Source: Marsupella aquatica
Taxonomy: Eukaryota > Plantae > Marchantiophyta
DNA: 64,000 nucleotides
Assembly: GCA_973895155.1 (NCBI GenBank)
Contig: OZ316896.1
Coordinates: 21,699,150 to 21,763,149 of the forward strand
Reading direction: 5' to 3'
Below are positions 17,195 to 45,800 of this stretch, in pieces (position 1 is the first letter of the stretch; the number at the start of each line of letters is the position of its first letter). The translations under genes were made by a program, and so were the position numbers. The notes under the pieces are model-generated. The model was not told the DNA's origin. It ran no database searches and saw only the letters and a list, made by a program, of their open reading frames with translations.

Positions 17195-18680
17195 TTGGGC
17201 TAGATAAGACTGTGCCTCTACTCTAGCATCTAGCTCTATGCTGTTCTGAGCTCTTGACAAGATCCGCAATGCCCTGCAGAGTTCCGCGTTCTTGAGGTCA
17301 AAAGGTTTGACTCCTTTAGTTGCTCGGTACGTCCAGTAATAGTAGGGTCATAGCATGGCAAATACGAAAAATGGGGACTGGGGAGACAAGAGAAGTCCAC
17401 CACATCCCCAGTTGTCAAGTGGTAGTGGTGTTGGACACTACCACTTGTCACTTGTCATTTGTTGGCTCCAAAAGGGGTCATTTTTTGCATATTTGTCGGT
17501 ATTCCTGACCGGCCCGAACTTTCCCGACCCCCTCCCGGACTCCCCCGGTTTAATGAGCCGGCCCCCCGGTTTGGGGTCGGGGCAGGGTAAGGTACGGTTG
17601 GCGTCGGGTCAAGGTTCATTGGGGGGGCCCGACAGGCCGGGGTCGGGCCGGGACAGGTCAGGGCCGGGGCTGGTCAGGGTCAGGGCGGGGTGTGGGCGGG
17701 TCAGGCCAGGCCGGGGCCGGGGCGGGGTGGGGTGTGGTCCAGCTCGGGCCGGAGCCAGGGGTTGGGGTCGGGACAACCGGGTGTTACAAATGTCATTTGT
17801 CGTGGTCCAGGCCAGGCGGGGCCGGGGCGGGGTGGGGTGTGGTCCAGCTCGGGCCGGAGCCAGGGGATGGGGTCAGGACAACCGGGTGTTACAAATGTCA
17901 TTTGTCGTGGTCCAGGCCAGGCGGGGCCGGGGCGGGGTGTGGTCCAGCTCGGGCCGGAGCCAGGGGATGGGGTCGGGACGACCGGGTGTTACAAATGTCA
18001 TTTGTCGTGGTCCAGACCCCTTATTTGCAGGACAAGTCACCCCTTATTTGCAGGACAAGTCCAACCCGGGAGCACGTCTACCAGAGAACAGGTCTTGCCT
18101 CTCAGGGCAAGATTCACACATTAATGCACCATTACTCTCCACCATAATACTGGGCAAGATTAGACTGTGCCTGCACTCTACCATTTAATTAGCTCTCTGC
18201 TGCTTCTAAGCACTTGGCAAGATTCACGATGCCCAGAGTTCCCCATTCTTGGAACCAATTAAAACTTGTGCCTCCTTATTTGCTCGGTCCAGTACTTGAA
18301 GAAGTGAGTTCATTGCATGGCATATACGAAGCATGGGGACGGGGAGGGAGAGAGAGAGAGGTGCACCGCATCTATATATTACTATTCGAGAGCAGGTCTA
18401 GCTTTGCCCTGACTTTAAGATTCACAAAGCTAGCATCACTCGATCTACACAACAGTCCGGGGCTAGATTAGACTGTGCCTCTACTATAGCATGATTTAGC
18501 TCTCTTCTGCTTCTAATAATTAAATTGTTGGCAAGATCCACAGTGGGCACGGTTCCCCGTTCTTGGGGCCAAAACTATTGATGCCTTATTAGCTCGGTAC
18601 AGCACCGGAAAGAGTGAGTTCATTGCATGGCAATACGAAGAATGGAGACTTGGGAGAGAGGGAGGGAGATGTCCACCAAT
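17195..18680. repeat. Three imperfect copies of a ~220-bp unit (about 17195-17406, 18150-18375, 18460-18680), with a MITE inserted after copy 1
   Basis: Recurring GGCTAGAT(T/A)AGACTGTGCCT...AGCTCTCTGCT...CAAGATCC...GCTCGGTAC...GCATGGCAATACGAA..ATGGGGAC. Shorter related units lie at 17030-17140. Confidence 0.75.
17407..18070. mobile_element. GC-rich MITE-like insertion (probably hAT) with ~105-bp internal tandem repeats
   Basis: Ends CCCAGTTG / CAACCCGGG. Imperfect 8-bp TSD ACCACATC (17399-17406) / AGCACGTC (18071-18078). Three copies of GGGCCGGGGCGGGGT...GTTACAAATGTCATTTGTCGTGGTCCAG. Confidence 0.6.
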
Positions 18681-19756: not shown

Positions 19757-21726
19757 CTGCTTTACGAGAAGCCTCCGCGGCCCACCCCCAGTGTATCTTC
19801 CCCTCCCTTTCAGATGACACCCACATCATTGGTCCACCTGTTGCTGTTACTTCTGCCCTCGCCACCCTTTCCACCCATTTGTTGGGCCTCGGTTTACGAG
19901 TTCAGCCGGTGAAGAGTCGTGCATGGAGTCCAGCTGGGTTACCCTCTGATCTTGCGCTTCCCCTGGGTTCTTACGTCCTACCGACGGTCTTCGGGTCCTT
20001 GGCTCCCCAGTCGGTACCGCCTCCTTTTGCTCATCTTTCATTGCTGACGCTCTCTAGGCTACCTTAGCCCCTACTCCTATGCTCCCTAAGTTAGCAGACT
20101 CTCAGGCAGCATTTGGGTTGTTGTTGAGATGCATCCACCCTCGTGCGTCCTATTTGGCTCGGACACATCCCCCTACCGAGGATCTTTATCTACACCTCCG
20201 AGCGTTTGATGTCTCCATTCGTGAGACTTTGGCCTCTCTTTTAGGGCCAGGTACTTTACTCTCATCTCCGTGGCTTCATCGACAGCTCAGTCTTCCTATT
20301 TCTCACGGTGGTTTTGGGCTTACTTCCACTGAGCGCCTTGCACCTTTGGCCTTCTTGGGCGCGTGGGCGGCCGCCTTCTCATTGTTGGCTAATCGTTTCC
20401 TTACTGAGGATCGACCTTTTTTACTTTCATCCCTCATGGTCGTCGAGGAGGGTTCCCTCCCATTTCAGGTTCATTTGCGCACGGCGCGGTCATCATTACC
20501 CGATCCTGTTCGAGCTGCGTTACCTTCATTCCAGGAGTTTTTATCCTTGGACCCCGTCCGTCTTCAGGCAGACCTTGCTGGGCGTATGCACGCTTTCACC
20601 CTTTCCAGCATCCTCACCGAGGCACCTGACACAGACCGAGCTCGGATTCTTTCTTCCGGGGGGAAAGGCGCAGGAGGCTGACTTCAGGCCAATCCAGTCA
20701 TTCCTCACCTGCGGATGTCTTCAGCGGAGTTTGCGACAGCCATGCATCTTTGTATGGGCTTGCCCCACCCACTTCTTGCTGGTTTACCTCCTACTTGCAG
20801 TTGTGGGAAGCCTTGTGATGCCACAGGTGTCCATCTTCTTCGATGCGGTTTGGGCGGCGAAACCATTTTTGTTCACGACGCTGTGAGAGATGCGACTGCT
20901 CAGGTTCTCTCTGGCTCTTTGGTCTGCGCGCGGCGGGAGGTGGTGCTCGAGTTACCTGGTCCTCCATCACAGCGGTTACGGGTGGATCTTACCATGGTCT
21001 GTGACGGTCACCGTACTTTGGCAGATGTAGTGGTGGCAAACCCATTGCGCCAAGACATCATTGGGACAGCGGCAACAACGGCAGGGGCAGCAGCATCATG
21101 AGCAGCAACAACAAAGGAGGCCAAATATGCTGCACGAGCTTCATCTGATAGCTTCTTGCCCCTTGCTCTTGAGATATTTGGGCGTCTCCATCATCAGTTC
21201 GACGGGCTTCTTCGCCAAGCTGCTCGAGATGTTCACGGCCGGATGGGTCCCACCGGGCCCCCGCTATCTATTTTGACCACGCACTTTTGCCAACGCATTT
21301 CAGTCACCTTACAGCGTGCTCAAGCTCGGGCCGTCTATCGTCGATCTCTGACAGTGGGTGCTAGTGTGACTCCGCAGCGGCTAGCCCCCCTAGAGGACAT
21401 TCCTGTCCCACTTGCCGATCTAGTTTCGACACTTGATGTAGACCACTAGCTTGTTGCCACATTTGCTAGGTATGATGAGGACCTCGGTCCATTTGCGGTA
21501 GTTTTAGTTACTCTTTCTTGGTTTTTAGGGGTTTCTTTTTGCTCACTTCTTTTAGTTCCTCTTTCTTGGTTTTTAGGGTTTCCTTTTGCTCACTTCTTTT
21601 GCGTTTGGTTTTGTCCACTTGGGACCTCTCTTGTTTATTCTTTTGTACTCTATTTGGCCTTTTTCTGTATAAAGTATGTGTATATATATATATATATATT
21701 TTTTATTTTATTTTTTATTTTATTTT
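19757..21726 (+). mobile_element. 5'-truncated non-LTR retrotransposon of the RLE type (CRE-like), decayed
   Basis: RT C-terminal motifs (FPSLSDDTHIIGP, GLRVQPVKS, GLRVLGSPVG), QLSLPISHGGFGL, Zn-knuckle CSCG...HLLRC...HDAVRD and RLE motifs RVDL...DVVV...KEAKY...PLALEIFG. In-frame TGA stops at 20679 and 21099. (TA)n/(TTTTA)n tail. Candidate TSD TAGTCTTA at 19749-19756 and 21727-21734. Confidence 0.88.
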
Positions 21727-22183
21727 TAGTCTTAACCATTGATGTTTGTTGATCAATGATGAGAGTTGTGCAATGTGGGTTGATGCACAATAATGTCGCT
21801 TGTGTAAAAATTGTCATGTGTGCGAGAATGGAAGTGCGCAAGAATAGTAATGTGTGTGAGAAGTATAACGCATGTAAGATCTATGCTAGTTGTCACTCAA
21901 AAACTGGGAAAGAATAATTATTAAATATGGGCCAGTAGTGTGGGTCAACTAAGTTGAAGCCAAAATCAACATGGATCTCTCATAAAAAATCATTTTTGTT
22001 TTACTCAACCAAATGGGCTGAACATTCTCTAAGGGATAGAGAGGAAAGTTGGGGAATCTAGTATTAAAGTTGGAGCTCAAACTTAGCTCCAAATTGTGAG
22101 TTAAAAAATATATTGATTTGAAAATTTTGTCTTAATCCAATCTCATCAGTCTATTCATTAAAACTGGAAAATTATTTGATCTT

Positions 22184-22310
22184 TGGACATTTGGGCACCA
22201 AAATATATACTTTTGGGTACAAGAATTATACATTTGGGCAGTGAAAGTTGTATATTTGGGCACAAGATCATGTACATTTGGGGAATCAAGATTGTATATA
22301 GGGGAAAATG
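22184..22310 (+). repeat. Left subterminal ~22-bp repeats of the transposon
   Basis: About 5-6 units of (T)ACATTTGGGCACAAGAATT-like sequence. Similar units in the same orientation lie at 35396-35458. Confidence 0.7.
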
Positions 22311-22871
22311 AAATATTAATTTGGATTCTAAAGAAAAACATTTGGGTGATAATAATGTAAAATATGTTGGATAAGAAGTAGAAAATTGATTCAATCTGAC
22401 TAACTAGTAAGTAAGTAATATAATATAACTAAAGCTAACTTCAATATGATCTCGACCCTAGCTATTGTAAACCTTCTACGTAATAAATGAAAGTATTAAT
22501 TTATAAACTTGTCAGAATGGTATCTATCCATATTAATTCAAGTAACTAACTAATTTGTTAGTACATTCTACAGTAAGCAACTCGAGTTGAAACTAAGGTT
22601 TACTAGAGGCAGTCACATCCCATCACGGATATGACTTCTTGTAATATAGTCAGATAGTATATTATGTAATTATAATTAAAGCAATTAATATAAAGGTATC
22701 CAAGTCCAATTAATACCTCCTGCCCACCTATTCAAACTAGTCTCCCAAAATATTATAAAAGTTACTTAGATTCACTAGTAACCAACTAGCTAGTACGTAA
22801 ACTAAGACATTCCAAACCAATTGACATACTTAGACTCCCTCACTCTGACTACTAGAAAACTTTAATTTGAC

Positions 22872-25800
22872 TTAATGAACAATCCCTTCCATGTAGGTTT
22901 TGAGTGTTTTCAAAACACTCTTGGGAATGGTCAAACCTCTATCAATTATATTTTCTTCTCTAGAGCGTGACTTGAATCCATACATAGCAGAATTAGCAAA
23001 TTGCCAACGTTCAGTGGCACTGTCAAACCCAGGATCCATCTCCCAAGTCTTAGTGGTCTGAAAGCAACGTGAATATCGCACATGATCCGGTGCATCATGT
23101 TTACCATGTTTAGGCCTCCACCATTGCACTTGGAACATAGGAGCATACCTTGTACTAGTAGAAATACTATTATTGCATTGCAAGTCTCCTGAAGGAACTT
23201 CATGGTTTGGGTCCACAACACCCAAAGCTCTCACCAACCAGAAAAGTTCCTTGCCATTCTTCTTTTCCCATTCATCCTCTGGACGAAGAAATACAAAGTG
23301 TCCCTCTTCAATGTCCTGGAGAGGAATCCAACGGGCAAGTTTTCGCTCGTGTCGAGTGCCAACAAATGGTGCAGTTTGATCCTCCATCTCTTCCAGGTAA
23401 TCATTCTGAAGCTCCACCATTTCTGGATTTTGTGTACTACTACTAGGTTCCCCCAATGGTTCAGAGGTTCCTATACTATTCACCTTGTAACCAGTTCCGT
23501 GGTTGGTTTTTGGCCAAAACTCATATGTCAATGCCAACTGTACTTCGGCCTCCCCTTCAATTGTAAGCTCCCCAGATAATACTTGCACCACCATTTCCCA
23601 ATATTTCACCAAAGGAAACCTCTCACGATATGCTGTAGAGGTCTCATCCTTACAACTCTTCTTCAAAAACTCGATGTAACGATTAAGGAATGGGATGATT
23701 TCTTCAACCTTGCCTCGTACATCCCCGGAGATGGGTTTTGCAAACGGTTGACCTTCTGGTAAAATGAGAGCATTGGTGTTGGAATCAGTTCTCCAAATGG
23801 ACCTTCCGGTTGGAGGATACCAAGGTTGTTTCACATGTGCTTTGTATTGATATACTGGAACATTATCTCTCATAGAGAAAAGAAATGCCACTGGTTTTGA
23901 GTGACCCTCTATGTCTTTTACCTTGAATGTTTTCAAAAACTCTTTGTAAGCTGCAACCTCTTGAATCAACCGTGGAACAGGATGAATGCTTTCACACTCC
24001 CAAACCTCAGCCATCAACCCCAAGAGGGTAGAAACCTCCTTGTACTTCACTTGGTTGGATACTTTTGAAAACAATGCATCGACATCCTCATGGGTGTGAC
24101 CAACCATGAGAAATGACATCTGCACTGTTTCAAAGACCCCTCTACTAACAAGCTCACTGCAAAATGCCATCACGTATTGGTTTTTGTTATCTTTCCATGA
24201 ATTATCCATTTGCAAGGTCAGGTGCCTTGGCAATGGTTTGAAAGAGGTAGCAGCCTTGGGATCAATACCAAACTCGTCATCCACCACATTTGATAACCCA
24301 ATATCTTGGTCATCTTCAACTCCTTGAAATCTAGCAATTGAGACTTTTTTGGGTTCTAAGTACCCTGCAAGAAATGCTTCAAAGTCCAAAAGAGATTGAA
24401 AAATTGGCCTCGTTGCAGCCCAATATAACCCTTCAAGGAGGTCTCCAGATTTGTCCCCCTTGTAATCCTCCAGATCTCTAAGGCACTTGGCCAACGATGT
24501 CACTGTGAAGTCTGCATCTCCCGGCCAAAGCTCAGTGAAACTGAAGTGAGCATACACTCCGGGATCCCTTCCGTGGGTCAACATCCCAGTGAGCGCAATG
24601 GGGAGAGGTTGACCACTGCCAGACAATGATTTAGGAGTGGGGACCAACCTAGGGATCCATGTCTTGGCTTGGTCCATCTTGTCATGTATAATGCCAAAGA
24701 TAGTTCTCAGGATCCTTCTTCGCAAGAACCCTGTGAGCATAGTAAACATATCTCCTAGACATTTGCTCACGAAGATGACGAGCTCTTCTTTCCTCAATCT
24801 CTAAACGCTCTTTCTTTCTCTTCTCACGCATCAACTGATCTTTGAACTCAGTGCAAAGTATACACTTTGCAAATGCACTACCCTTGTGAAAGTCAAAATT
24901 CATGAAGGACTCACTCCAGAGTTTATACATAGTGTTTTCACTCACCTTCACGTAGCCATCTAATTCCATCTTGGAGTACACCTCCTCAAAAATCTCTTTC
25001 TTTGTGAAACAAGATGGAAGTCTATACTCAACCGTGTTAGTACCATGAGACCCTCCATAGGGTAGATGCGGCATGGGTTCTCCGTTTTGGGTTAGAATGG
25101 ACTCCAACAAAGCACGAGCGTGCAAGGTGCTTCCCCGTGTCTTGTGTGAACCCTTGTTTCCATGGAATTCAACCTTGCAACCTGCTTCGTATTGATTTTT
25201 GTAATCATAATACTTGGCAGTGCTGAATCCATGCATTTTAATAAATGCACCCTTGCATACAAGTCGACCTCTTACAACAAAATATCCTTTTGTCTCCACT
25301 TCCTTCTCCCTGCAACCAAAAAGAGTGAAAATGTGACTGGTTTTGTTGTCGCTTGACATCCCATGGTATTCCCTCCTTATCGCCTGTAGGTCTTCTCTCG
25401 GCATGTTGAGGCAACACTTCAACTTACAACAACCTTCTCTTTGGATGGAATCAATTTCCTCTTCTGTGATTTTCAGAATTGCCCTTGACTCCAGGTGCTT
25501 CTTCCTTTTTTCATCAGGGTTCCCCTTCGTTCTCTTGATGAAATTATAAGGCCGTTTTGAAAACTCAGTATGACCATTCATATCTACCTCTAGACGATCT
25601 CGACCATCAATAATTGGCTCGGGAGAAACCTCTCCAATGAGATCCAGAAGAAAAATCCCCCTTGATATCAGCACAAGTGAACGGATGGCCCACCTAACAA
25701 GACCGGGCACTCCGGGGGAGATATTCGGGAAAAATTGAGGGTCAATCACGCCTGTGACAACAACCCCAACGTGATCTGGCCCAAGAACCTCATCATCAAT

Positions 25801-26591
25801 GGCACCGGACTCGAAAGGAACTGTGATGATGCCAAGCCCGACCTTGGTCCGATTATCATCAACATACAATTCCACTTCCTCCGCCATCCAGTTCGAACGC
25901 AAACTATAATCTTTGAAATTATAATTTCCAAAAACATCCCGTGCGGACGGCTCATCTAGTAAATCATGTGAAGAACATTCCTTAAATTCCAGATTACAAA
26001 ACTGTCCAATCCTTCCTGAACGGTAACGGCTCCAGCGTGCGGAAAGGGTAACCTCTCCATTCCTTGAACAACTTCACATATCTTCACACTAATCCTATCA
26101 GGGCCAAGTCTTTCATTGTGACAAGTCTCATCGGGATTCGTCTTGAATACAAATCCTCGACACACAATCTGATTTCCAATCGAGAGCTCCACTTCATCGC
26201 CATCTGTAATTGAGTCTCCCAAACTTCCCACCACAGATTTGTCAGGTAAGCAATTGGGAAATGAATCATTTGTAGAACATGTAGCATCCACTTGTGTCAT
26301 CGCTGGAGTTGATTGTGACCTCAAATATGCGAAAGAGGCATCCCAAATAATGCAGGAGTCTACAACATCAAAAAGTGTTCTGATCGGTGGCAACGGGAAT
26401 GGAATTTCTCGAGATCCATAATAGCACCTCTCAATAAGAACTCCTATACGATTAATACCCAAATCAACGTTACGCACTGAGTCACCGGGGTCAACCTTAA
26501 GGACTGTTCTAGAGGCAACTTCAACTCCGTCAAGTAAGAGGGAAACCTCGTCTCCTCGAAAGAATATCCCCATTTGGAAAAGATGTTCCAA
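22872..26591 (-). pseudogene. Sola/DUF7869-like DDD transposase (~1240 codons) with three N-terminal Tnp1/En/Spm-like domains; two frameshifts; start not resolved
   Basis: Core motifs IIHDKMDQAK, LTLQMDNSWKDNKNQYV and FLMVGHTHEDVDALFS. Cys-rich CCKLKCC / VCKGAF..HG / FAKCILC. Three track ORFs join through frameshifts near 25970 (NVLH to HDLLDEPSARDV) and near 24697 (ENYL to IIHDK). Confidence 0.85.
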
Positions 26592-26667
26592 ACAGGAAGC
26601 TGTTGTACCTCGAGATGATCTCGAGGTAAAGTGACTAGCAAAAACAAACCAACAGAACTAGCAGTAA

Positions 26668-26903
26668 CAGATTAAGAAGTCTTTAGCTCGAGACAATCTC
26701 GAGGTAAAGAATGGACCACAAAAACCATGAGATATAGATTAACAAAGTCTTCAGCTCGAGATGATCTCGAGGTAAAGAATGGACCACAAAAACCACGAGA
26801 TATAGATTAACAAAGTCTTCAGCTCGACACGATCTCGAGGTAAAGAATGGACCACAAAAACCACGAGATATAGATTAACAAAAGTTTTCAGCTCGAGACA
26901 ATC
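26668..26903. repeat. 68-bp tandem repeat (~3.5 units), each unit containing the element palindrome
   Basis: CTCGAGA-type starts at 26687, 26755, 26823 and 26892 within GAGGTAAAGAATGGACCACAAAAACCA.GAGATATAGATTAACAAAGTCTTCAG units. Confidence 0.9.
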
Positions 26904-27349
26904 CACATGAAGAGGGAATTCAATACTTCCCACGATCAATAATCCACCCTAGAAGAAGAACTATGAAGTGCATAGAAACAACAGCTCATAATAACTCCTC
27001 AGAGAAGCATGAACTCACGCAAGAGAAGGAAAGATACTTAAATACTTGTGGATTTAAAGGAGCTAGAAACAAAAATAGACAATTCCCAGGAAGATACCTA
27101 AAGCTCGAGACGATCTCGAGCCACAAATGACACTCTAATTGAAAAATATGTTGGAATGAATGAGGAGCTCTAGATGATCTAGAGGTAAAAGTTTGACATT
27201 GAAATACATAAAGTAGGCTTACAGAAGACTAATGAGAAATGAGAAATAGCTTCAAAAAAAAAAAAAAAGGTTCACAAATGGATTCTGAGTGGCAATGTTT
27301 TAAGCATAAATGGTTTGGTATTCTAAAAGGTATGGGTTCAATTATTTTA

Positions 27350-28052
27350 GACCAACTTCATGGCTTCAAATGAGAATGTCTCCAAAACCAAATAAACAAC
27401 TGAGAGAGAAAGGGATTCGAGAATAAATCTAGAGCCAGAGAACAGGGAGCGAGAGGTAGGGGCAGGAAGAGGGATAAGAGAGAGAATGAGGGGAGCAGGA
27501 AGCGAGCAATGAAACGATATCTGAAGAATGACCCGGTGGGGAGGAAAAACGAGCAATATATAAAATCCTACCTGACCAGACGGCTCTGTCAAACCAATGG
27601 CAGGGATGAACTAGCGGCAGGGTGAAGTACGGACCGCAATAATGACGGTACGTGTGACAGCACCGTCATCATGACTCAACTCAAGATTCACTCCCACGCA
27701 TGGGCGCGTGGCATCCTGCACGTGGCCGGGCATCAGTCGCCGGGCACCCCAGCCTGACTTAGGGCCGACTGAGCGGCTTATAGTCCACATTCGTAATGTC
27801 GCCACCCTCATTTGCACATTCGCCTCCCTGCCTACCTCCCCTCCGCGCCTCACTCGCCTCTTGCTTACTGCCTCTAGATATTTCGTCGCTTTTGCCTCTA
27901 GATCATTATTTTTCCCTCGAGACTTGTTTAGGGTCAAGATCCCCTTTGAGCCTCGAGATATTTTATAGCCGTTTGGATCGGGATTTTCCTGTGAGCCTTG
28001 AGACAATATTTTTCTTATATCACCCAGATCTAGTATCCAGTATCCAGTAGCC
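27350..28052. promoter_or_regulatory. Putative bidirectional promoter region between the transposase (leftward) and cargo (rightward) genes
   Basis: GC-richer non-coding core at 27600-27860. TATA-like ATATATAAAAT near 27557. Purine/pyrimidine skew flips across the region. Divergent ORFs lie on either side. Confidence 0.4.
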
Positions 28053-31000
28053 ATGTCGATCGTTGTAGATTTCTCCAAGGACGACTTCGCCGAGTACGAC
28101 ACATCAACTGTAGCGATGGAGCTTCAGACCCTTCTAGATTCATCGCAGAACATCCACCGCACTATCAAACGTAATATATTATCTTTTCTCATTGTTAGAT
28201 GGAGGTTTGGCTCGAGATCATCTCAAGCTTCAAATCATACTTGGTTTTTGATCCACTTGAGGGTCGAGATCATCTCAAGCCGATTGATATTTTCTACATT
28301 ACTTTGCTTCAAGAGGTGGCTTCGAAGTGAACAAGTTTATCGTTTGTAACTGAGATTAGGCTCGAGATCGTCTCGAGCCTAATATCCATAAAGTTAAGAG
28401 GTTTCTGTCATTTTCATATTGATGTATCTGTCAGATTGTTGTATTTGTCATGCTGTATCTGTCAAATACTAACAGCATATCCAAAAGGGATTATGGAAAA
28501 GGCAGATTTAGATTCCTATTGAATATGTTGTTCGTATTTGACGGATGTTTTATTATTTCCGATGGAAAACAATATCCTTCAGAAACCAACATCATATCGA
28601 AAGTCGTCCAAGCTTGCTTCTGAAAACGACTTCTGTACTCTCCAACTTGTTCTGATCATGGAAATCATCCTGAGTTAGAGAGTTTTTGAAGCCTTTTCTA
28701 GAGGTAAAATTGGACAACTTTTGAGTATGTTGTTCGTATTTGATCGATCATATTTGAGAATCAATGTCTTCAGTGAAGAAACATGATAATGCAAAGATTT
28801 AGTTAACGGTGAACGAATGCCAACTATGAGTCTCTGTATTCTAACTTTTAGAGACTTGGGTCGAGATCATCTCGACCCAAGTATTAAAATATCCAATTCA
28901 TCAACAATATACTAACTTTTTGCCTTGTCAGATTTTTTGCGTATGGAAGACCACGTCTGTCGAAAACCAACATCCTATCAAAAGTCGACCAAGCTTGCTT
29001 CTGTCAACGACTTTTGTACTCTCCAACTCGTTCTGATCATGGAAATCATCCCGAGTTAGAGAGTTTTTGAAGCCGGTGTTAGACGTAAGCTTGGTCAACC
29101 TTTGAGTATGATGTTCGTATTCGATGGAGATTCTCATAATTGAGAATCGATGTTTTCCTATGACGAAATATGATAATGCAGAGATTTAGATAACGTTGAC
29201 TGTTTAGCCATGATTGACTCTTCCTGTATTCTATTTCTAAAGTATTGTTCATGAATTTAGGGTCGAGATCATCTCGAGCTTCCATTGTATTCCATGGCTA
29301 CTTGCCATCTGTAGATTGCAAAATACCCTCCAACTCGTTTCCATTGATGATTGGGGTTCGAAAAGGTGATTGGTAGTTGGGTTTATGATATTTTAGAATC
29401 AATTCCTCCCCCCAAATACATCTAGCCATGAAACAACAGTTTTGTACTTATTTGAGTTCAACTATGTTAATGGGTGAGGGAAGCTCGAGATCGTCTCGAG
29501 CCTCTTACCGGATTTCTCATTTCTGTGATTCTGACAATTGGTCTATTTTTCATTTTTTCCAGGTGCAAAATTGGGATCGCCCAATTTGATTGTTGAAGAT
29601 GAACATGCCCTTGAGGTTTTGTGCCCTGGACAAACTGATATAGGATTCTGTTGGGCCATTGAGCTAGCTGAAATTGAGGAGATGGAGGGGTCAGTTATTT
29701 GTTTGAAGACGCGGTCTCCATCTACCGAACCTCTAGTTTGCAGCTTACTTGGGCCTGTTGTTTCCATTGTCACAAGTAATGGTAAGGAGATGATCTTGAC
29801 GGTGGAGAACCATGAGACTGGGAAATGGGCTCTCATTAGGCTTCACTCCAAGAACTACTCGTGCGATCTTAATATTGAACGTGCTGCTAGGAAACAACTG
29901 AGCGTGATACCAATGGGATTCTTCCCTGATGGATTTACTGCCAGTAATTTGTTGGAAGAGTCCAAAATGACTGGGGCAGATATAATTTTTGGATTCTTGT
30001 ATTGCCGGAAATACGGTTTTGATCATGACAATGAATTCACGACTCCTTTCACTTGGAAGGTTTTGAGAATAATGTCAGATTCCAAGGTGGGAGAGTTTCA
30101 ATCCATTTCCCCTGATTTTGTTTTTGGAGCTGGTGAATTTGACGAGGAAGGGTGCAAGAAGTGGGTGTTGTCTCATCGGAGACAAACAGGTAAAGGGAAA
30201 TCAGGAGCTGCAGGAGATAAGATGTCAGGCTCGGACAAGAAGAAGGTAAAGGTGGCGCAAAAGAGGAAAAGGGTTGAGAAACCTGAAAGCGGTTCGAAGA
30301 AGGCTCCGCCTAAGAAAAAGTCTGCTCCTGTAAAGGTAGATCTCATTCCGGCATCTTCTTCGGGTGTGATTGCACATACCGATGATGATGGCACTCCAGG
30401 AGATGCTCCGGGTGAAAAGAGCGTTAAAGAAGGAGCCGAAGTTCTTAAGGAGATTGAGGAGTATTACACATTTGGCATGAATGAAACTTTTGACATTCCT
30501 GTCACTAGTATAAATTCACCCTCTGCAGTTTTGGTATATAGGATGTTCAATAAGGACCATGCCATGGAGATTGCAAAATCCATGGTTAGAAACCCTGGAA
30601 TGGTACCAGCTGTGGCGGATTTAATTCCGTATTCAAGAGAGAGTTCGCAGTTGCTCCATTATGATAATACTCCTGAGGATCGAAAGGAGTTCGAGTGGGG
30701 TGTTAAGAATAAGAAGGTGCAATTCCTTGCAATTAGTGGACAACACTCGGCCAAGGCAGTAGTTTGGATCATTGGTTGGTCTAAGAGCGATGCAAAGTTG
30801 AAGGAGGTCGCCAAGAGTCTTCAGCTTCGAAAGTCACGAATTCTTTCGGACAAAACTCCAAGAACAATACTTGCTCAACACTCACAAAGGGCAAATGCAG
30901 TTAACAAGACGATGGAGTATGAGTCCTATTTTCTTGATACTATGGTCCATGCCCGTCGACAGTTTGACGAGTGTGGCCGTCCCGAGAGACCCGTGATTGG

Positions 31001-33500
31001 GTCCAATAGACTAACGGATCATCAAAAGTTCCAGGTATATTCGAACTCAAATCCACTTCTAGCTTGAGATTGTCTCGAGCCTCGAGGTCAAGTTTTTGTA
31101 TTCAAGTCTTTTTCAATAAATTTCAACATAGTTTCTTCTACCTCTAGATCGTCTCGAGCCTCAGTTTTTCATTGTTATCTTTGGATCAGGATTTCATGGC
31201 TTTGGCCAAAATAACGACTGGAAAATCCGACCTGAGGAATATTTTTTGGTTGTTGTTTTTGGAAGAGAAACTGTTCCAGTCTTGGAGACTAATGTGCATC
31301 GATTGGGTCAAGGGGCTGATGGACTTGGTGAGTTAGGTTCAAAAACGAATGGGAAAAGCCGGACAACCAAAATGATTACACCGGCATTGTTTAGATGCTT
31401 TGAAGGGGACCTCAGTAGTGAGGACATTCTAAAGGTGTTCACCGCCGTTCATCATCAGAAGGTTCTATTGAAGAAAGACCCGACGAACAAATCTGATGTT
31501 CAATCAATGAGTGACATGGCCCATATGTTTAAAGTCATGACAAAGCTAAAGGCAAAAATTGTGGAGTACTATGTTTTAAAGTATCCCGAACATTTTTCCG
31601 ATTCACTTACTTGGTTTGAGCTAACTCAATTTTTGCCAACATTTTTAGATCACGGTGAATTGCCGAAACTGAGACAGCTCGCTAGTGAGGTTTGGCTGTC
31701 CAATCTCCTAAAGAGAAATAGGGCCAAAGAACCATTTCCGCAAAGTCTCATTGTGAGCTTGAGCAGATATACTACAAGACGTTTGGTGGGACTCCTGCTA
31801 TGGTGGATACTCCTTATCGCAGTTTTTTAAGCGATAATCTTATGAGGACGATGAAGCCGGAATCAGTTGGACCCTTTCATAATACGTGCGCACTTGCCGT
31901 TGTCGACTTTGGTCGTATTCGACAACGTCAATGGACAGATGCTGAGATTTTTGTCTTGTTGGAATATTGTCTGGAGATGTCTAACTCAACCGAGTTTTTG
32001 GAAATCATTTTTGTTCGTCAAGGCCCTTTAATAGGCCAGATTCAGAGTGCCTTCGAGAAGTTCCGTCGTGAGAAGAAAGTCCACACTAAGCTCGAGTACG
32101 GTAGTTACTACCGTGAAGATGTACCCAAGGAGGAAGGTGACTTTCTCATAGGAGCACGGGACACTATCATTTTTGGGGGAGTTTGTTGTGACGAAGAGCC
32201 TGACTGGTCCCAAATTTTCTTCGACGATTTTTATGCGTTCTGGAATTACAGTGCTAAGTACGACAAAGACTTCACCGTCTTACCGATGAGGTCTTCCGCT
32301 GGGAAACGCAAGGATCAACAAAGAGGGAAAGAGAAGCAGGATGAAGTTGGAGTTGATGTCGAAGTATTGGAGAAGATGGCCCCGTCTTATGAGATGGTCG
32401 GTAGGAGAGGGGGCTTTGTAAACCCCAGAGCTAAACCTATACGAATGACAAAGCGTCTTGTTGATTATTTCTCCAGCACTAGTCACACAGTGCTTGACTT
32501 CTTCTCCAAAGGGCAGACCCTCAAAGCTTGCGTCATTGTTGGTCGGGATTGTTTTGTTTATTCTGACACAGCTCAAGAGATGGAATTCATCGAAGCTTAT
32601 GCGCGGCTCCTCCATGACAACCGCCATGTTTTATATATTCCACCCCCAGAGTCGTTGCCATCTGAGGCCATTGAAGCCAGTCCCCTTACTGTTTTGGAAG
32701 AAGTGGCCTCGGATCCAGCTCCAGTTGAGGCGAGTGTTACCGAGGAAGTTTTTGCGGAGAATTTGGAGCATCGCAAAACAGAGGGCCCCAAAATCCCAAG
32801 CTACATGGAAGAGGAGGGTGAAATATTGCCCGAATTTAATGAGGTAAATGATGGTCGAGATGATCTCGAGCTTCCTGGTGTACCTTCTTCGGTGGACGCG
32901 TTTCATGTAGAGGATGCACAACATGAGCAGCAGTCTTCAAACTTGGATGTTGGTTGGGAAACCACCTTGCAGGACGCTGCCAGCCACCCAATTCCTAGCC
33001 CACCTTGACTCGATGAGATCCTTTCAACCAAGAAAGCTTGTTGCTCCCCTGCCACAACTCCCCCTCAGGACGAGGCAGGTGCATCGTCCTCTCCCTTGGA
33101 CCAAATGTTTTGCGCTTCAGAGGATAAGCTTGTTTTCACATATTCTTCTACTGGAAGCCCCGTAATTCTCCCTTTTGTTAGGAAACCTGGTGTTGAAATC
33201 GGTAGAACTGGCTACAAATCTCTCAAAGCTAATGCTACTCATTATGTGTGGATTCATGGTCCATCAAAAGGAGAACAAGTCAATGTAGATCAGGCTGAGA
33301 AGATTATGCGTTCCAGGGATTATAGGAAAAATAAGTTTAAATTAGTGCCAGTTTGGTCTGAGCCAGCTCTTGTTGAAACGCTTCCTGGAGGGATCAATTT
33401 GGACATCCAAAACCAATTAGGAGATAACCTTCTAGATGAATTTGGGTCTTTCAGCAAGTGACGTTGAAACCCAAGCTACCTTCAGTCCTCAAATTCAGCC
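28053..33500 (+). pseudogene. Transposon cargo gene: basic NLS-like segment + ParB/Srx(DGQHR)-like domain + degenerate beta-class N4/N6 DNA-methyltransferase-like domain; spliced, several lesions
   Basis: Probable ATG at 28053, large exon 29563-31034, GT..AG intron 31035-31189. ParB-like FDIPV...VYRMFNKDHAMEIAKSM...FLAISGQHSAKA (30483-30760). MTase-like NPRAKPIRMTKRLVDYFSSTSHTVLDFFSKGQTLKACVIVGRDCFVYS (32421-32565). Frameshifts near 31320 and 31750, in-frame TGA at 33006. Confidence 0.6.
28560..29280. repeat. Internal direct duplication of ~0.3-0.4 kb, each copy ending in the palindrome
   Basis: AAGTCG(T/A)CCAAGCTTGCTTCTG...GGAAATCATCC(T/C)GAGTTAGAGAGTTTTTGAAGCC at about 28600 and about 28982. 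Confidence 0.85.
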
Positions 33501-33726
33501 ATCTAAATTATTATGTCTACCTTCACAGAGATAGGCGGGCCATTACCAGTTGTGGATTGCGTCGACAATAGTCTCCGAAGCTTTCCACATTCTTTGACAT
33601 CTGCCCTTCAGCCAATTGCAGGTTTGTCGCGCACTGTTGTTCATTTACTTTTCATGCTCGAGATCATCTCTAGCCTACCTTTATTCTGTCTCACACAATT
33701 CTAATATAGGTGTCTCTTGTTTGCAG

Positions 33727-34783
33727 GACCCTTGCCTCCACTTCACGGTCCAATCAGACGGAAGCTATTGATTCTTGACCTCAACAAAATGTGTTGGGAT
33801 TCTGTTAGAACTCCGAGTCCTGGACCGCGCCGAAGTGCCACAAGTGTCAAGGCTGTTCATTGGGGGAGACGTGGAGGATTTAACTTTATGTATGTTGAGG
33901 GTCCCCATCTTCACGAGTTCTTAATCGCAGCTTTTGCTATATTTGATGTTGCCATCTGGACTTGTGCAAGAAAGCCTAGGGCAAATGAAATGATTCATTT
34001 GATCTTCACTCAAGAAGAGCAGGAGCAATTCAAGTTTATTCTGACGCAAGAAGATACATTTGACATTGGAATCCAGAGGCCTGACGTCACCGAAGGAAAG
34101 GCAAATATTCTTTTGAAGGATTTGAGGGTTGTTTGGAAACGTTATGGTTTATTATACGATGAGACTAATACACTCCTCCTTGATGACTCTCCAATGAAGG
34201 CGTTTGCAAATCCAGAGAATTGTGGATTGTTCCCTTCTTCATTTTCGCATCACTCCACGGATGATACTTTCTTTCCCGAAATACTGTGGCCTCTGCTGAG
34301 GAAATTGTATCATGCCTTCAATCTTCAACACTACCTATTTATCAATCAACCAAAGTGGTCTATGATCAATGTTTTATCGGATAGGGATCAACAGGTTGCC
34401 ATTTATGCTCTGTTGTCGGAGAGGTGGGGTAGTATGGTATGGGTTCCCAATGTTATCCATACAGTCTTGGATGTTACAGCGGACGAAATTCCCTGGGATA
34501 TCAAGAATGAAGTGCAACAATTGCCACCAATTGAGGAATTGACGGAGGAGGCGATCGAGGACCTTATAAGGATATTAATTGGGGATCAGTATACAGGACC
34601 CTATAGAGACAATCATCTGGCATTTGTTTAGGAAGTTCTGAGGACTAGAGACCTCACGACTAAGTTTTGGAATAGAAATCCTCTGGATTTCTGCAATCGC
34701 GATATGAAATATGACCCGTCAGGGTCTAGATTTAATTGCTCAAATGAATTTTGCGAGGAGGAGGATCATGAGATTTGGGTCTA
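33727..34783 (+). pseudogene. FCP1/SCP/NIF-like HAD phosphatase domain carried by the transposon (separate gene or last exon of the cargo gene)
   Basis: RKLLILDLN...PHLHEFL..AFAIFDVAIWTCA...LKDLRVVW...YDETNTLLLDDSPMKAFANPEN. Acceptor TTTGCAG ends at 33726. The TAG at 34629 looks premature because the frame stays open to about 34783. Confidence 0.8.
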
Positions 34784-35547
34784 GATGATCTCGACCCTAC
34801 ACCAAACACTGATTATTAGTTAGGGGTATATGTTTGCAGGAAAGCGTGAAGCTTACCGTAACATCCATTTGGGTCTAAATGTTCTCGACCCTCTACTGAA
34901 GAAATAGGGTTTTACTTATAGATATATACTCATAAAAAGGTTAGTCTATTCGGGGCTTAACCCTGTACAGAAAGAATAGTAAGTTAAAGATATACATTCA
35001 ACAACGGGTCAGAATTATGTGAACCCTCCATTTGGGTCGAGATGGTCACCATATAGATTTTTACAGATATGCATTCAACAACCGGTCAGAACCATCTGGA
35101 CCCTACATAGGGGTCAACGTGATCTCGACCCTGTAAAAATAGGTTTTATAATTTTATAATACATCACTTGTTTTCCTGGAGTTCCGTGTTCATGACCCTT
35201 GGTTAGAGTGTGTCATTTTTAATGTTATCATTTGAATTTATTGTATTGTCAAACTAATATTCTAATATTGTCTTATTCTGTATTTTTATCTGTTTATATT
35301 TATAATTAATAATATTTATAATTAATAATATTTATAATTAATAACTTAGTTATTTAATAATTTGAGCATTACAATTGTAAATTTAGACTTTAAAAAGTGT
35401 ACATTTGGCCACGAAAATGTATGATTTTGGGGACAAAGTTATAGAATTTTGGGGTGTAAAATAATAGATTTAAACGTCAACTTTTGGACTAGAGAAATTC
35501 CAGTTTTAATGAATAGGGTGATTCTCAGTTACGATAAGCCTACTTAG

Positions 35548-42833: not shown

Positions 42834-45800
42834 ATGGCGACGCAAGACACCGCGGAAGTCTGGAATTTGGAGAATACGCCAACATGGGCTGTGGGCAGTG
42901 TGTGCGCGATTTTCGTCTCCATTTCCTTGATCTTCGTACTTGCAATTGAGAAGCTTGAGCATGTAAGTAAAATCTTCCTCGTGGTACACGCCTGACCTTC
43001 ATATAATCTGCTTTCTATTATTGAGTCTCGATTTAATTGCAGGGCTTGCACTTTCGTATTAAATTAAGAATCTGGACATGAATCGAAAGAAAACTAGCCC
43101 AAGTTGTAGGCGTGGTCTTGATTTGGTTTGCGTAGCTGGATGAGAAGCCGGCTTGCCTAATTGTCTTTCCTTTATAGAGAGAGGATGGGTCGGGATGCTC
43201 TTACTGGGCGGACAAGCGGAGCTTTAGGGCGACAGTGTGCAGGTGGCTCGAATATTGGCATGTGTAGATAAATCCTGTGGGACTGACCCAATAGATAGTT
43301 TTGTCGCCCAAATAATTCTCACAATCCATTTCAAACCCTTCCACCATATTTAATTTCGTTGGTCTGCGATTGAGGTCAACAGAAACAAACTCCTGTTGTT
43401 ACAGAGTCTAAAAGGTCATGTCTTTAGAGTATGAATCCGTAATTCCTGTGTGGGGCTCACAAGAACTATTATTGAGATTGGGTTCTTTCTCCTGTGGATT
43501 TGCAGTATCTCAAACACAAGAACCGCAAACCACTCGTGCAGGCACTTGACAAACTGAAAGAAGGTAAGCCTCTGTTCCAATCTTCCCTTTCTTTCTGGTT
43601 GGCAGATTGAGCGTGCTCTGTCTTTCGTTGTAGGACTAGTAGGACCGGGTAACCCTTTCAAGAGGTGTCGAAGTTTGCATTAGGTTCTCTTTTATGTTGA
43701 AATGATGCTCAGTGAATGTTTCCTTCCCGGGGCAAAAGTCATGTTAATCACTTGTGACTTCAAATCCGAAGAAAAATTCTGCACACTTTTTATACGGTTT
43801 TAACTTCAGAGCGTTAATGTATTCAAACAATAGCCTTACAGCTATCGCTGGATACGAATGATGACATGAGCCATTTGTTTCCGTTTGGTTTGCAGAATTA
43901 TTGCTACTGGGATTCATATCTCTCCTGCTCGCGGTGTTTCAAAATTACGTCGCAAGTATATGCGTCAAAACTAGTTTATTGGAGGATTGGCGTCCCTGCA
44001 AACTCCAGACGAAAGGGGCTTCGGGAGGATCAGAAAATGTTACCGAAGGGAAGCGAAGACTGTTGGCAACTGATTCGTGGCCGATGATTGATTGGCGCGA
44101 CGAGCCACTTTTCCATGGCCGGATCCTCGGTCAAAGTGCTCCCAAAGCTTGCCATGCTGTATGTACATGAAATTCTCAGGCAGATTTTAGACGACCAAAT
44201 TCGTTGTTTTCACATTAATTTATCACCTTCAACTTCAGCCGGCGTCTGGGTATATGCATGCGTGTGCTGAAGCACACGATCTTTCTCCCTTATCAGCGAT
44301 CTGCCTGATTTTCGAGCACTCTGCTTGGGCAGCATGACCTGTTCAATGATGAACAATGATGAACACGAGGTCTGTCCGATTCCCACGGATCTGACTGACG
44401 ATTTTGAGTGTTTCCTACCAAATCTTTCCGACCAAATCTTTCCGAGGGCAGATATTGAAAATCCGAACTTTTGTTGCAGGGAGCTACCGCGTTAGTATCG
44501 GTTGAGACCTTGGCACAGCTGCACACATTCATCTTTGTCCTGGCTGGCGTGCACGTAATCTACAGTTTGTTTGCAATGCTGCTGGCCTCCACCAAGGTGA
44601 ACAGGTGGAGAGTGTGGGAAGAGGAGGCACATCAGGACACCAACGATACCTTGGGCGAAGCTGTGAGGTCACTGTCGATGCACCGGCAAACAACGTTCAT
44701 CAAGTACCACACTTCCAAGCCTCTTACCACGAACCGGTTCTTTGGCTGGTTGATTTGCTTCTTCCGACAATTCGGCAAGTCGGTTGTGCGCTCAGATTAC
44801 CTTGCTCTCCGCCTCGGATTCATCGGAAGTCACAACACGGGTCAAAGTTTCGATTTTCATAGCTATATTATCCGATCCCTTGAAGATGAATACCAGGACG
44901 TGGTAGGGATCAGGTAACCAGCTTCACCCCTTCGCACTTGTCTCATTTATTTTCTTCAATTTGATAGGTAATTCTACAACTCAAACATATGATGAAAGGA
45001 TCCTTGATTTTAACGTTCTGCCATCGTTTTGTTGTGCTGCCAGTCCCTCCCTCTGGTTATTCGTGATCCTCTTCATGCTCATCAATGCTGCCGGAACAAA
45101 CCTCTTCTTCTGGCTTTCTTTGATCCCTGGAGTGGTATGCCCTTTACTCCTTAGTTTTCGATCTTCTCCTCAAAATATATAGATCACCAACTTGCAATCA
45201 AGATAGCCAAGATGTAGAAGAAAATGAAGCAAATAGAAATTAAGTGCGAGGCAAATCAAACTTGAGGCATTCATTCAAAACAGTAAGTCATTCAAAACAG
45301 TACATTCATTCAAGACAGTACATTCAAACATAGTTTATTCATCCTGTTTAGACCAAACCCAAGTTAGGAAAATGGGCTGTAGTTCTGTTGGATTGAGATG
45401 TTGATGCCGTTCACTTTGTTGTACTTGAAGCTAGTTCTGTTGGTGGGAGCTAAGCTACAGCACGTTATAGCGACTTTGGCGTGGGAGAGCGCAGGACTCA
45501 ATCCGAATGGCGTGTACTCTGGACCGACAGTAAAGCCGCGAGATGATCTATTCTGGTTCAAAAGACCTACGCTGATTCTCTATTTGATCCACTACATCTT
45601 TTTCCAGAATGCGTTCGACATGGCAACTTTCATCTCATACGTGGTGAGTGTTTTTTCGCTGATCACGTAGAATTCTTGATGACATCGCCGGAAGAATTGG
45701 GAAGTGATCCTTCTTCTCCTTTGATCTCGCAGTGGCAATTCGGTTTGAATTCGTGCCTTCTGAGCAACAAAGGCTATGTGTATGCTCGCCTTGCGATCGG

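Follow-up and report, generated by a model that had tools for sequence, protein, structure and literature searches.

The window, a 64,000-nucleotide stretch of the Marsupella aquatica genome, contains a cut-and-paste DNA transposon of 13.4 kb in decayed form, within which an accessory gene lies on the + strand, opposite to the DUF7869 transposase gene (Table 1). With moderate confidence, we propose that this is a decayed helper gene whose product has a beta-class methyltransferase fold and which, having D-F-x-R in place of the catalytic DPPY, would be non-methylating and likely to bind the DNA of its own element.

Table 1 Features of the transposon and its accessory gene (positions in the window)
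Feature	Position	Strand	Basis or remarks
DNA transposon, 13,377 bp	22146..35522	.	Empty-site contigs, terminal inverted repeat
Left terminal inverted repeat	22145..22169	+	25 nt, 92% complementary to 35498-35522
Right terminal inverted repeat	35498..35522	-	Partner of 22145..22169
Transposase gene, three ORF pieces	22872..26657	-	PF25273 DUF7869, E 6.2e-46
Palindrome CTCGAGATNRTCTCGAG, 18 sites	25588..34795 (span)	.	All inside the element
Accessory gene, predicted exon 1 (MKQQFCTYLSSTMLM plus one base)	29428..29473	+	ATG, GTGAGG donor, kept frame
Predicted intron 1, GT..AG	29474..29562	+	Contains palindrome 29484-29500
Exon 2: conserved N-terminal domain of unknown fold, Lys-rich linker, SGQHS domain	29563..31034	+	
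SGQHS domain (ParB/Srx-like candidate)	30489..31034	+	25 invariant columns in 10 rows
FDIPVTSI	30489-30512	+	
YRMFNKDHAMEIAKSM	30537-30584	+	
FLAISGQHSAKA	30723-30758	+	
SGQHS motif	30735-30749	+	
Predicted intron 2, GT..AG	31035..31189	+	Palindromes at 31063, 31142 inside
Helical linker region of exon 3	31190..31755	+	7-nt deletion behind 31315, 1-nt deletion behind 31755
Methyltransferase-like domain	31755..32651	+	Homologs, profiles, predicted model
VDTPY	31803-31817	+	
Motif IV place, LAVVDFGR	31893-31916	+	
Motif X, VNPRAKP	32418-32438	+	
Motif I, VLDFFSKGQ	32490-32516	+	VLDFFSKGQT, 32490-32519
Strand beta2, GRDCFVYSD	32541-32567	+	
Acidic, poorly conserved stretch	32652..33107	+	In-frame TGA 33006-33008; palindrome 32854-32870 (GRDDLELPG)
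Conserved C-terminal domain of unknown fold	33108..33461	+	FC..DKLVF ... GP.KG ... E[FY]GSF
Third ORF, NIF/FCP1-like phosphatase domain	33705..34631	+	PF03031, E 9.3e-16

The element is flanked by a target-site duplication, TCTCA, at 22141-22145 and 35523-35527 (a register of 4 or 5 bp is possible), and ACATTTGGGC-like subterminal repeats lie just inside its left terminal inverted repeat. Seven contigs from three of the four runs (X1, one; X3, three; X4, three) join 22140 to 35523 as an empty site with a 5-letter overlap, while run X2 contained no contig with this joint. Hundreds to thousands of contigs represent copies of the transposon, 90–99% alike. In the window copy the transposase gene is frameshifted, with one nucleotide at 24694 that most other copies lack, and another at 26638 that is missing from some.

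All strings quoted in the preliminary description were found on the + strand where it had placed them, and from the sequence, the SGQHS half and the methylase-like half belong to one gene. Exons 2 and 3 are bridged by proteins P0055 and P0009: P0055, an annotated Calypogeia fissa protein, reads KFQ/DWQVLAKIT across intron 2 (slash, intron place), whereas P0048, P0049, and P0051 stop 2–3 residues into this intron. The 1009-aa P0058 has no break there and combines, in a single ORF, an SGQHS domain, helical linker, methylase-like domain, acidic stretch, and small C-terminal domain; the last of these domains in the window aligns with the C-termini of P0001, P0002, P0003, P0010, P0015, and P0058. 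Exon 2, with a Lys-rich linker at about 30237-30272, has 8 homologs (E 1.5e-149 to 3.1e-41), and the predicted exon 1/2 junction would use a pyrimidine-rich acceptor at 29562 that maintains the frame. Across at least two liverwort classes, the family is conserved at 25–50% identity with invariant motifs.

The accessory gene of the window copy is dead, with two frameshifts and one stop codon. Both frameshifts, earlier placed at about 31320 and 31750, are real: other copies carry 7 nt (CTTCTTC) behind 31315, in one contig each of X1, X3, and X4, which is all the depth there, and 1 nt behind 31755/31756 (X1, X3, X4). Frame arithmetic agrees with both insertions, and homologs P0001, P0002, P0004, and P0009 run uninterrupted over both places.

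The initial reading of the second half, as transposon-borne and related to beta-class N6A/N4C amino-methyltransferases, is borne out by profile and predicted-model matches, and the resemblance is confirmed to be far above chance. Relatives of the methylase half numbered 47 at E ≤ 1e-3 and 27 at ≤ 1e-10. Of 17 relatives, 11 were matched by PF01555 at E ≤ 0.1 and five reached or exceeded the curated cut-off, with the window's own sequence below it (18.2 vs 26.7 bits). The family profile matched M.RsrI in the PDB (E 1.8e-8), and hhalign against a plasmid methylase gave 93.5% (E 2.3e-7). An AlphaFold and Foldseek check, suggested at the outset, retrieved a methyltransferase fold: the AF2 model (pLDDT 82.2, pTM 0.82) matched CcrM best (E 5.6e-10), then M.BceJIV, M1.HpyAVI, RsrI, PvuII, and rotifer N4CMT. 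In VIA, CcrM reached Z 16.7 (rmsd 3.6, 212 residues aligned), RsrI 15.3, and N4CMT 14.8, vs only about 11 for the MT-A70 clade, and matches in BFVD were phage and giant-virus N4/N6 methylases. Overall, the likeness to the PF01555 enzymes CcrM, M.BceJIV, M.RsrI, M1.HpyAVI, and M.PvuII covers the whole-domain fold (Z 14.5–16.7, about 190–210 residues), and that to bacterial and phage beta-class methylases extends to a permuted arrangement in which the motif IV place precedes motifs X and I, and to N-P-x-x-K-P and D-F-F-x-G (M.RsrI reads VLDFFAGSG). Unlike these enzymes, the liverwort family lacks [DNS]PP[YFW], has a glycine loop one residue shorter (here vs M.RsrI), and places the domain in a 1000-aa eukaryotic gene with predicted introns.

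As first proposed, LAVVDFG occupies the DPPY position, where the model predicts a strand ending in Asp and then a loop. This residue register comes from the motif pattern, predicted secondary structure, and aligned-range offsets; a single global hhalign run placed DPPY 4–5 residues upstream, with low confidence. VDTPY was ruled out as motif IV, as it falls in an N-terminal strand that relatives conserve as xEP[FY]. None of the 52 family proteins contained [DNS]PP[YFWL], and the motif IV place holds a conserved D-F-x-R (D in 21/22; F in 18/22, with L in 4; R in 19/22). The catalytic death suggested for this gene would extend beyond the window copy, and the methylase-like protein is probably dead family-wide, judging from these motifs. 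The motif X region (V-N-P-x-x-K-P; N223 in 30/36, K227 in 33/36) and the motif I region (D-F-F-S-G-G; F249 in 32/34, F250 in 33/34, G253 in 30/32) are conserved, and the acidic residue closing strand beta2 is kept in just 16 of 29 rows. Neither the shortened glycine loop nor this acid count settles SAM binding.

A candidate DNA ligand is a palindrome of 17–29 nt with two CTCGAG sites, which populates the intergenic region and predicted introns. Its 36 strand-matches correspond to 18 sites (25588, 26609, 26687, 26755, 26823, 27104, 27168, 28211, 28263, 28361, 28860, 29262, 29484, 31063, 31142, 32854, 33657, and 34779), against 0.73 expected, a number reached in none of 100 shuffles; CTCGAG itself occurs 26 times in the 13.4 kb of the element vs 7 times in the other 50.6 kb. 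In our proposal, the accessory protein would have lost methyl transfer to exocyclic amino groups, and its fold of methylase origin, which may dimerise as in bacterial relatives, and/or its SGQHS domain would recognise these palindromes, which may aid transposition or shield the element. The palindromes could also be promoter elements, recombination hot spots, or hairpin-forming insertions; in one element copy, the stretch between two palindromes is missing.

The same observations have been weighed against a protein that would still methylate DNA (or RNA) by means of a non-canonical motif IV. Such an enzyme would mark the element, as has been suggested for the algal ParB-methylase accessory proteins, e.g., at CTCGAG, a typical restriction-modification target, to escape or redirect host silencing. 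The strong conservation around motifs X and I might just as well reflect retained SAM binding and some catalysis, and a D-F-x-R that is conserved, not decaying, is compatible with a remodelled active site. However, every known active PF01555 member has, to our knowledge, the Pro-Pro-aromatic loop that this whole family lacks, and we know of no active member without it; the shortened motif I loop and patchy beta2 acid also argue against activity, which we consider unlikely, even though the authors of the algal cases interpret their methylase domains as active N4C or N6A enzymes (PMC12477816). Still less probable is that the accessory gene is passenger cargo or a roleless relic and the palindromes unrelated regulatory or structural repeats. 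Host-gene capture is common among transposons, and the window copy is dead and its transposase frameshifted too, but the family conservation across liverwort classes speaks against this, as does the same kind of gene accompanying brown- and red-algal transposases (PMC12477816; 10.1101/2025.02.11.637652).

A closer contender, to which we give slightly less than an even chance, would make the SGQHS domain a genuine nucleotide-binding DNA clamp or nuclease-like module of the ParB/Srx fold; this domain, instead of the methylase-like one, would then read the palindromes like parS, and the two-domain gene would derive in one piece from a ParB-methylase fusion of phage or plasmid origin. The preliminary description had likened this domain to ParB/Srx/DndB: the domain is real and conserved (F109 and S113-G-Q-H-S117 do not vary among the 10 rows), but the fold drew no significant profile or structural match, only a motif pattern. 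The hydrophobic strand followed by S-G-Q-H-S-A-x-A is one we take to resemble DGQHR, GxxR, and FGGCHR, and the predicted order (helix 52–64, strand 73–79, strand 107–113, helix 114–127) is consistent with it; conversely, Ser replaces the Arg of the DGQHR-type motif in all ten rows. ParB, Srx, and DndB gave no significant score in Pfam, NCBIfam, PHROGs, PADLOC, or PDB profiles, and hhalign with one plasmid ParB gave 0.35%. Weaker signals came from DndB (E 0.052 in one of nine members), a language-model search (ParB_N cluster 0.90 at rank 13; DUF6551 clusters 0.88–0.89), and a 494-aa phage protein named ParB/Sulfiredoxin, rank 7 among the BFVD fold matches of the methylase model. Fold searches gave no ParB support, although the SGQHS-domain model has a pLDDT of 50.7 and these searches therefore test little. 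Identical domain order is described for algal transposons (PMC12477816; 10.1101/2025.02.11.637652), and mainly on these counterparts and the motif pattern, a ParB/Srx fold appears about evenly balanced.

Returning to our proposal of a non-methylating helper, transposon accessory proteins of the ParB-like plus methylase kind have already been reported from algae, and the liverwort gene is a land-plant variant of them (PMC12477816; Bostrychia preprint). Sola1-1_Ec32 of Ectocarpus, compared here by description, is likewise a large cut-and-paste element with a long accessory protein (1104 aa vs 1009 aa in P0058) encoded opposite to the transposase, whose C-terminal half holds an N4C/N6A methylase domain of prokaryote type, preceded by a DNA-binding-type, ParB-like domain (PMC12477816). 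It differs in host and size (brown alga, 21.5 kb vs liverwort, 13.4 kb), whereas the liverwort family has D-F-x-R in place of the catalytic motif throughout and only a putative ParB identity for its first domain. Among eukaryotic genes of prokaryotic PF01555-type origin, Marchantia DN4MT1a/b, also from a liverwort, and bdelloid N4CMT belong to the host, keep (T)SPPY intact (TSPPY in DN4MT1), and have proven 4mC activity (10.1101/2021.02.12.428880, PMC8885841), unlike this multi-copy transposon gene without (T)SPPY. Inactive methylase domains are known from METTL14 and the transposon-borne, degenerate domain of DIRS1 elements, with a methylase fold likewise selected for after loss of the active-site motif, as a putative binding scaffold; their fold clades (MT-A70; PCIF1-like in DIRS1), elements, and partners are different (PMC4738411). 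Finally, red-algal Plavaka/EnSpm elements carry the accessory genes PAG2 (PF01555 plus SET) and PAG3 (ParB-like plus 2OG oxygenase), with inverted-repeat arrays beside PAG3 in Plavaka that are thought to be bound by its ParB-like protein (10.1101/2025.02.11.637652). There, the methylase and ParB-like domains lie in two proteins, with SET and oxygenase partners and another transposase superfamily, whereas the liverwort element has one fusion protein and a NIF-like ORF (10.1101/2025.02.11.637652). Contig depth over this ORF resembles that of the remainder of the element.

The part of the accessory gene that the preliminary description had likened to a beta-class amino-methyltransferase is supported as methylase-like by its relatives, by profile matches, and by the fold of an AF2 model. 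Taken alone, the window piece scored 17.3 and 18.2 bits against PF01555, i.e., under the curated cut-off of 26.7 bits. A search of 1.84 billion representatives returned 47 relatives at E ≤ 1e-3, including 27 at E ≤ 1e-10, and PF01555 was matched at E ≤ 0.1 in 11 of the 17 relatives scanned, reaching the cut-off in five; the relative P0058 displayed no PF01555 match. Against the PDB, the family profile matched M.RsrI (E 1.8e-8), and hhalign against one plasmid methylase gave 93.5% (E 2.3e-7) over the stretch from motif X to motif I. Matches of P0003, another relative, to plasmids by tblastn were weak (E 0.06–3), and among those listed, 28 of 30 lay under annotated DNA methyltransferase genes and two under no annotated gene. 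The AF2 model (pLDDT 82.2, pTM 0.82) displayed across the whole domain the Rossmann-type fold of beta-class N6A/N4C amino-methyltransferases, both in Foldseek, where CcrM ranked best (E 5.6e-10) followed by M.BceJIV, M1.HpyAVI, M.RsrI, M.PvuII, TTHA0409, MboIIA, and the rotifer N4CMT (to E 5.5e-7), with METTL3-14 behind these bacterial enzymes and N4CMT, and in VIA-align, where CcrM (Z 16.7, rmsd 3.6, 212 residues aligned over model residues 19–297) was followed by RsrI (Z 15.3), N4CMT (Z 14.8), PvuII (Z 14.5), and the MT-A70 clade (about Z 11). A viral structure library likewise yielded N4/N6 methylases of phages and giant viruses, and the permuted motif order is present, with LAVVDFGR at model residues 47–54, VNPRAKP at 222–228, and VLDFFSKGQ at 246–254. 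Searches for related loci with two alignment profiles gave 101 pattern matches in viral contigs (A4) and 178 in metagenome contigs (A2), none of which was confirmed, and a protein homologue search found none for ORF3 at near lengths and none for ORF1 at longer lengths.

Within this fold, the catalytic motif is missing throughout the family. None of the 52 family proteins holds [DNS]PP[YFWL] anywhere in its sequence, in line with the earlier guess that the domain is possibly dead, and 22 of them carry L-A-x-V-D-[FL]-x-[RKQ] in its stead; DPPY, SPPY, or DPPF is present in each of the six phage and plasmid methylases that served as a comparison. Across the 22 sequences, the motif IV columns read D in 21, F in 18 (L in the other four), and R in 19, with x being S in nine, A in four, T in three, and another residue in six, and thus the replacement motif is conserved in its own right. 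The string LAVVDFG had been proposed as the expected DPPY position, and two observations bear this out: a hydrophobic strand (model residues 47–51) with Asp at its end is followed by a loop and a W-T-[DE] helix, a layout that matches the "hhhhDPPY...W.D" pattern of real enzymes, and the offsets of the VIA-aligned ranges, which start from the chain N-termini (model 19 to CcrM 4; model 17 to RsrI 36), place DPPY near model residues 46–54. One global hhalign run placed DPPY, with low confidence, 4–5 residues upstream, and Pro-Pro-aromatic is absent in either register. The upstream string VDTPY was ruled out as motif IV: this place is xEP[FY] in relatives, which read TEPF, QEPY, IEPF, or KMPF, and it forms an earlier, separate N-terminal strand in the model. 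Other motifs are kept. In the motif X region, V-N-P-x-x-K-P retains N in 30 and K in 33 of 36 rows; in the motif I region, D-F-F-S-G-G-Q retains its two F (32/34 and 33/34) and its second G (30/32), with a glycine loop one residue shorter than the FFAGSG of M.RsrI. The acidic residue (Asp) past strand beta2 is retained in only 16 of 29 rows. The window copy is the sole one among 32 rows with Lys in place of the first Gly of motif I.

The accessory gene comprises four long plus-strand open frames, in which each of the strings quoted in the preliminary description was located at its stated place, and the window copy of this gene is a relic. The two frameshifts suggested at about 31320 and 31750 proved exact. 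Other genomic copies carry CTTCTTC behind 31315 (X1, X3, and X4, three of the four runs of genomic contigs with other element copies, one contig each making up the entire depth at that position) and one additional base behind 31755/31756 (same three runs), and these +7 and +1 bases lead from the frame opened at 31190 into the second and then the third frame. Homologs read straight across both places, and homology to the third frame begins at its residue 11–13, directly past the second shift. An in-frame TGA in the window copy is absent at that place in relatives. The intron behind the SGQHS domain begins with GTATAT and ends with CAG; it is spanned by KFQ|DWQVLAKIT in P0055, an annotated Calypogeia fissa protein, and the ORF-called relatives P0048, P0049, and P0051 terminate 2–3 residues inside it. 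A candidate intron enclosing the palindrome at 32854 was excluded, as P0001 is continuous as a single ORF at the matching position. In P0058, a member of the P0009 cluster, one ORF of 1009 aa encodes in order the SGQHS domain, a linker, the methylase-like domain (CAIVDFAR, VNPESKL, IFDFFSGG), an acidic stretch, and a C-terminal domain. Gene structure in relatives thus puts both segments in a single product, which speaks against the refuting condition set in the preliminary description. The N-terminal domain, aligned in 5–6 relatives, and the small C-terminal domain, with FC..DKLVF, GP.KG, and E[FY]GSF, are both conserved and without a family match.

Features of the transposon, its accessory gene, and the surrounding sequence
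Feature	Coordinates	Strand	Remarks
Tyrosinase gene	3-677	-	host; long exons
Mnd1 with LZ3wCH gene	13962-15090	+	host; long exons
G-rich array	17570-18008		families D1, D3
Left-flank repeat	20500-21633		different repeat from the element
DNA transposon	22146-35522		13,377 bp
DUF7869 transposase gene	22872-26657	-	E 6.2e-46; three frames
Range of palindrome sites	25588-34795		18 sites
Low-depth region	26737-29571		
Accessory gene	29428-33461	+	relic
Upstream exon	29428-29473	+	prediction (splice consensus, kept frame)
Upstream intron	29474-29562	+	prediction (splice consensus, kept frame)
Open frame 1	29535-31067	+	
N-terminal domain	29563-30230	+	
SGQHS domain	30489-31034	+	ParB/Srx-like candidate
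Intron	31035-31189	+	
Open frame 2	31132-31830	+	
Open frame 3	31722-33008	+	
Methylase-like domain	31755-32651	+	
In-frame TGA	33006-33008	+	
Open frame 4	33009-33461	+	
C-terminal domain	33108-33461	+	
NIF/FCP1-like ORF	33705-34631	+	PF03031, E 9.3e-16
Mlo gene	44459-46653	+	host; long exons
ATP synthase OSCP gene	49484-50350	+	host; long exons

This gene lies inside a bounded element, opposite in strand to the transposase gene. Direct joints from 22140 to 35523, which skip 13,382 bases with five letters fitting both sides, were found on one X1, three X3, and three X4 contigs and on none of X2; TCTCA stands at 22141–22145 and again at 35523–35527, and the element is terminated by a 25-nt inverted repeat. 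The joint contigs, the duplicated TCTCA, and the terminal inverted repeat therefore set the element borders, with a target duplication of 4–5 bp, which fits the 4 bp known for Sola1. Parts of the element were found on hundreds to thousands of contigs, 90–99% alike. Its left flank is a different repeat with a summed contig depth much above the element's own, and the element seems to have inserted into this repeat; since the left flank is very high-copy, what look like "empty sites" could instead be further copies of the left-flank repeat. The transposase of the window copy is also broken, as most other copies are without one base at 24694 and some without one at 26638. A Cys-rich CCKLKCC motif stands in the middle transposase piece, and the term DUF7869 was not found in the literature. 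The third ORF of the element encodes a NIF/FCP1-like phosphatase domain that reads D-L-N-K-M at 33768–33791, in place of the DxDx(T/V) motif of these phosphatases; judging from this reading, its product may be inactive too, or mutated in the window copy. Outside the element, the G-rich array is built from tandem units of 105 nt together with shorter repeats of the GGGGC type.

The upstream segment, likened to a ParB/Srx fold, is a real conserved domain, but the ParB/Srx/DndB fold found no significant match in profile searches. A search with the first frame retrieved eight relatives (E 1.5e-149 to 3.1e-41), and 25 columns of the domain alignment are invariant in 10 rows, including F109 and S113-G-Q-H-S117. 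The GxxR/DGQHR nucleotide-binding motif of ParB/Srx would be expected to hold Arg at the last position, where all 10 rows read Ser (S-G-Q-H-S). Pfam gave no ParB/Srx/DndB match for the window piece at E ≤ 10 and none for P0058, the sole exception among profile searches being a DndB match at E 0.052 in one of nine members; there was no ParB, Srx, or DndB match in NCBIfam or in PDB profile searches with A2 and A5, and no shared family in PHROGs and PADLOC. The only PDB match of A5, to a fimbrial fusion, consisted of three repeated 7-bit stretches and was taken as spurious. Comparison with one plasmid ParB by hhalign gave 0.35%, tblastn with the SGQHS domain returned a single phage match (E 1), to a large hypothetical protein encoded next to particle proteins, and two irrelevant plasmid matches without ParB, and the A5 profile matched none of five phage/plasmid records, a blank that says little since ParB_N is matched, and weakly at that, in just one of these records. 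The AF2 model of the domain, built from nine sequences, was poor (pLDDT 50.7, pTM 0.35), and its blank fold searches therefore test little: Foldseek gave nothing at E ≤ 0.001, and VIA-wide scores reached at most Z 5.2, with unrelated chains.

Nevertheless, we consider the chances of a ParB fold for the SGQHS domain about even, because of its motif pattern, which presumably resembles that of ParB, its predicted helix/strand order, the ParB_N (0.90, rank 13) and DUF6551 (0.88–0.89) clusters found in a language-model search, and above all its published counterparts. The top neighbour in the same search (query 30399–31034) was DUF3723 (0.94; 167 of 256 features), and the nearest neighbours are fungal clusters, with DUF3723 in 31% of their members. 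DUF3723 is a conserved accessory gene family of Starship giant transposons in fungi; there was no supporting Pfam match for it, and no link of DUF3723 to ParB was found in the literature, so that this kinship is a lead only. No ParB-methylase fusion was seen among the six phage and plasmid methylases, the four scanned with Pfam being stand-alone PF01555 genes and the other two too short for a second domain, and three further plasmid methylases are likewise short stand-alone genes. In Burkholderia phage vB_CB2a (L005 1785-2606 / L008), an ORF right behind a PF01555 methylase has a weak, sub-cut-off ParB_N match (E 9e-4, 14.8 bits); the two genes adjoin, unfused.

In 2025, a class of accessory proteins whose members combine a ParB-like part and a prokaryotic N4C/N6A methylase was put forward as binding and marking its own element (PMC12477816), as in Sola1-1_Ec32, described there as a 21.5-kb element with an accessory protein encoded opposite the transposase. 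By architecture, as judged from these descriptions, the liverwort gene is alike: it sits in a transposon with defined borders, on the strand opposite to that of the transposase gene, and encodes a protein of about 1000 aa (P0058, 1009 aa) with a methylase fold in its C-terminal half, the ParB part being a candidate only. In the red alga Bostrychia, on Plavaka elements, PAG2 is described as PF01555 plus SET and PAG3 as ParB-like (HHpred E 0.29) plus a 2OG oxygenase, with inverted-repeat arrays adjoining PAG3 (10.1101/2025.02.11.637652). Inactive methylase folds are described in METTL14 and DIRS1 elements by Iyer et al. (PMC4738411). Unlike genuine beta-class enzymes, the liverwort family lacks the catalytic motif, and its window copy misses the PF01555 cut-off; Marchantia DN4MT1, a host gene, retains TSPPY (10.1101/2021.02.12.428880). 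All relatives with a named organism come from the liverworts Calypogeia fissa and Riccia sorocarpa, an organism name being attached to 4 of 20 proteins in two look-ups and to 2 of 8 in the first-frame set, and the family was absent among the matches listed in a literature search on liverwort DNA transposons and PF01555. This kind of gene is already in print for algae, from which the class has been known so far, and the liverwort family is a land-plant variant that extends it, with named relatives in two liverwort classes. The initial observation was largely right. The loss of the catalytic loop in this family also calls for caution, as PF01555-like genes in liverwort assemblies should not be read as 4mC/6mA writers beside the genuine DN4MT1.

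The accessory gene is hence a transposon helper gene whose product has a methylase fold without the canonical catalytic loop. The loss of this loop in every member while other motifs are kept argues that, at least in this branch, the accessory protein would bind instead of methylating. Its likely target would be the element's own palindrome CTCGAGATNRTCTCGAG, which occurs at 18 sites against 0.73 expected; among bacterial relatives of the methylase fold, short palindromes are acted on by dimers. The 17-nt palindrome holds two CTCGAG sites and is found solely inside the element: the divergent intergenic region has 12 sites, the two predicted introns together have three, and single sites fall in the acidic coding stretch, between genes, and past the NIF-like ORF. 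Individual copies extend their symmetry to 25–29 nt with co-varying flanks (ATTAGG..CCTAAT, CTTGGG..CCCAAG), and the extended copies fold into DNA hairpins of 8–13 bp (z -6.9, -7.7, -2.5, -7.1). A bolder version, to which we give a rather small chance, would see in D-F-x-R a remodelled pocket and not decay: a DNA reader that senses SAM or has a new activity and that, with a ParB-type first domain, loads the 18 hairpin-capable CTCGAG palindromes in introns and intergenic DNA as a parS/ParB- or KorB-like coat controlling transcription, splicing, or escape from silencing. If true, bacterial partition and operator logic would have been rebuilt within a land-plant transposon. On one X4 contig, 26628 and 29481 are joined through 29 other letters, a 2.85-kb central deletion with both ends at palindromes, and across the low-depth region the summed depth is far below that of the genes.
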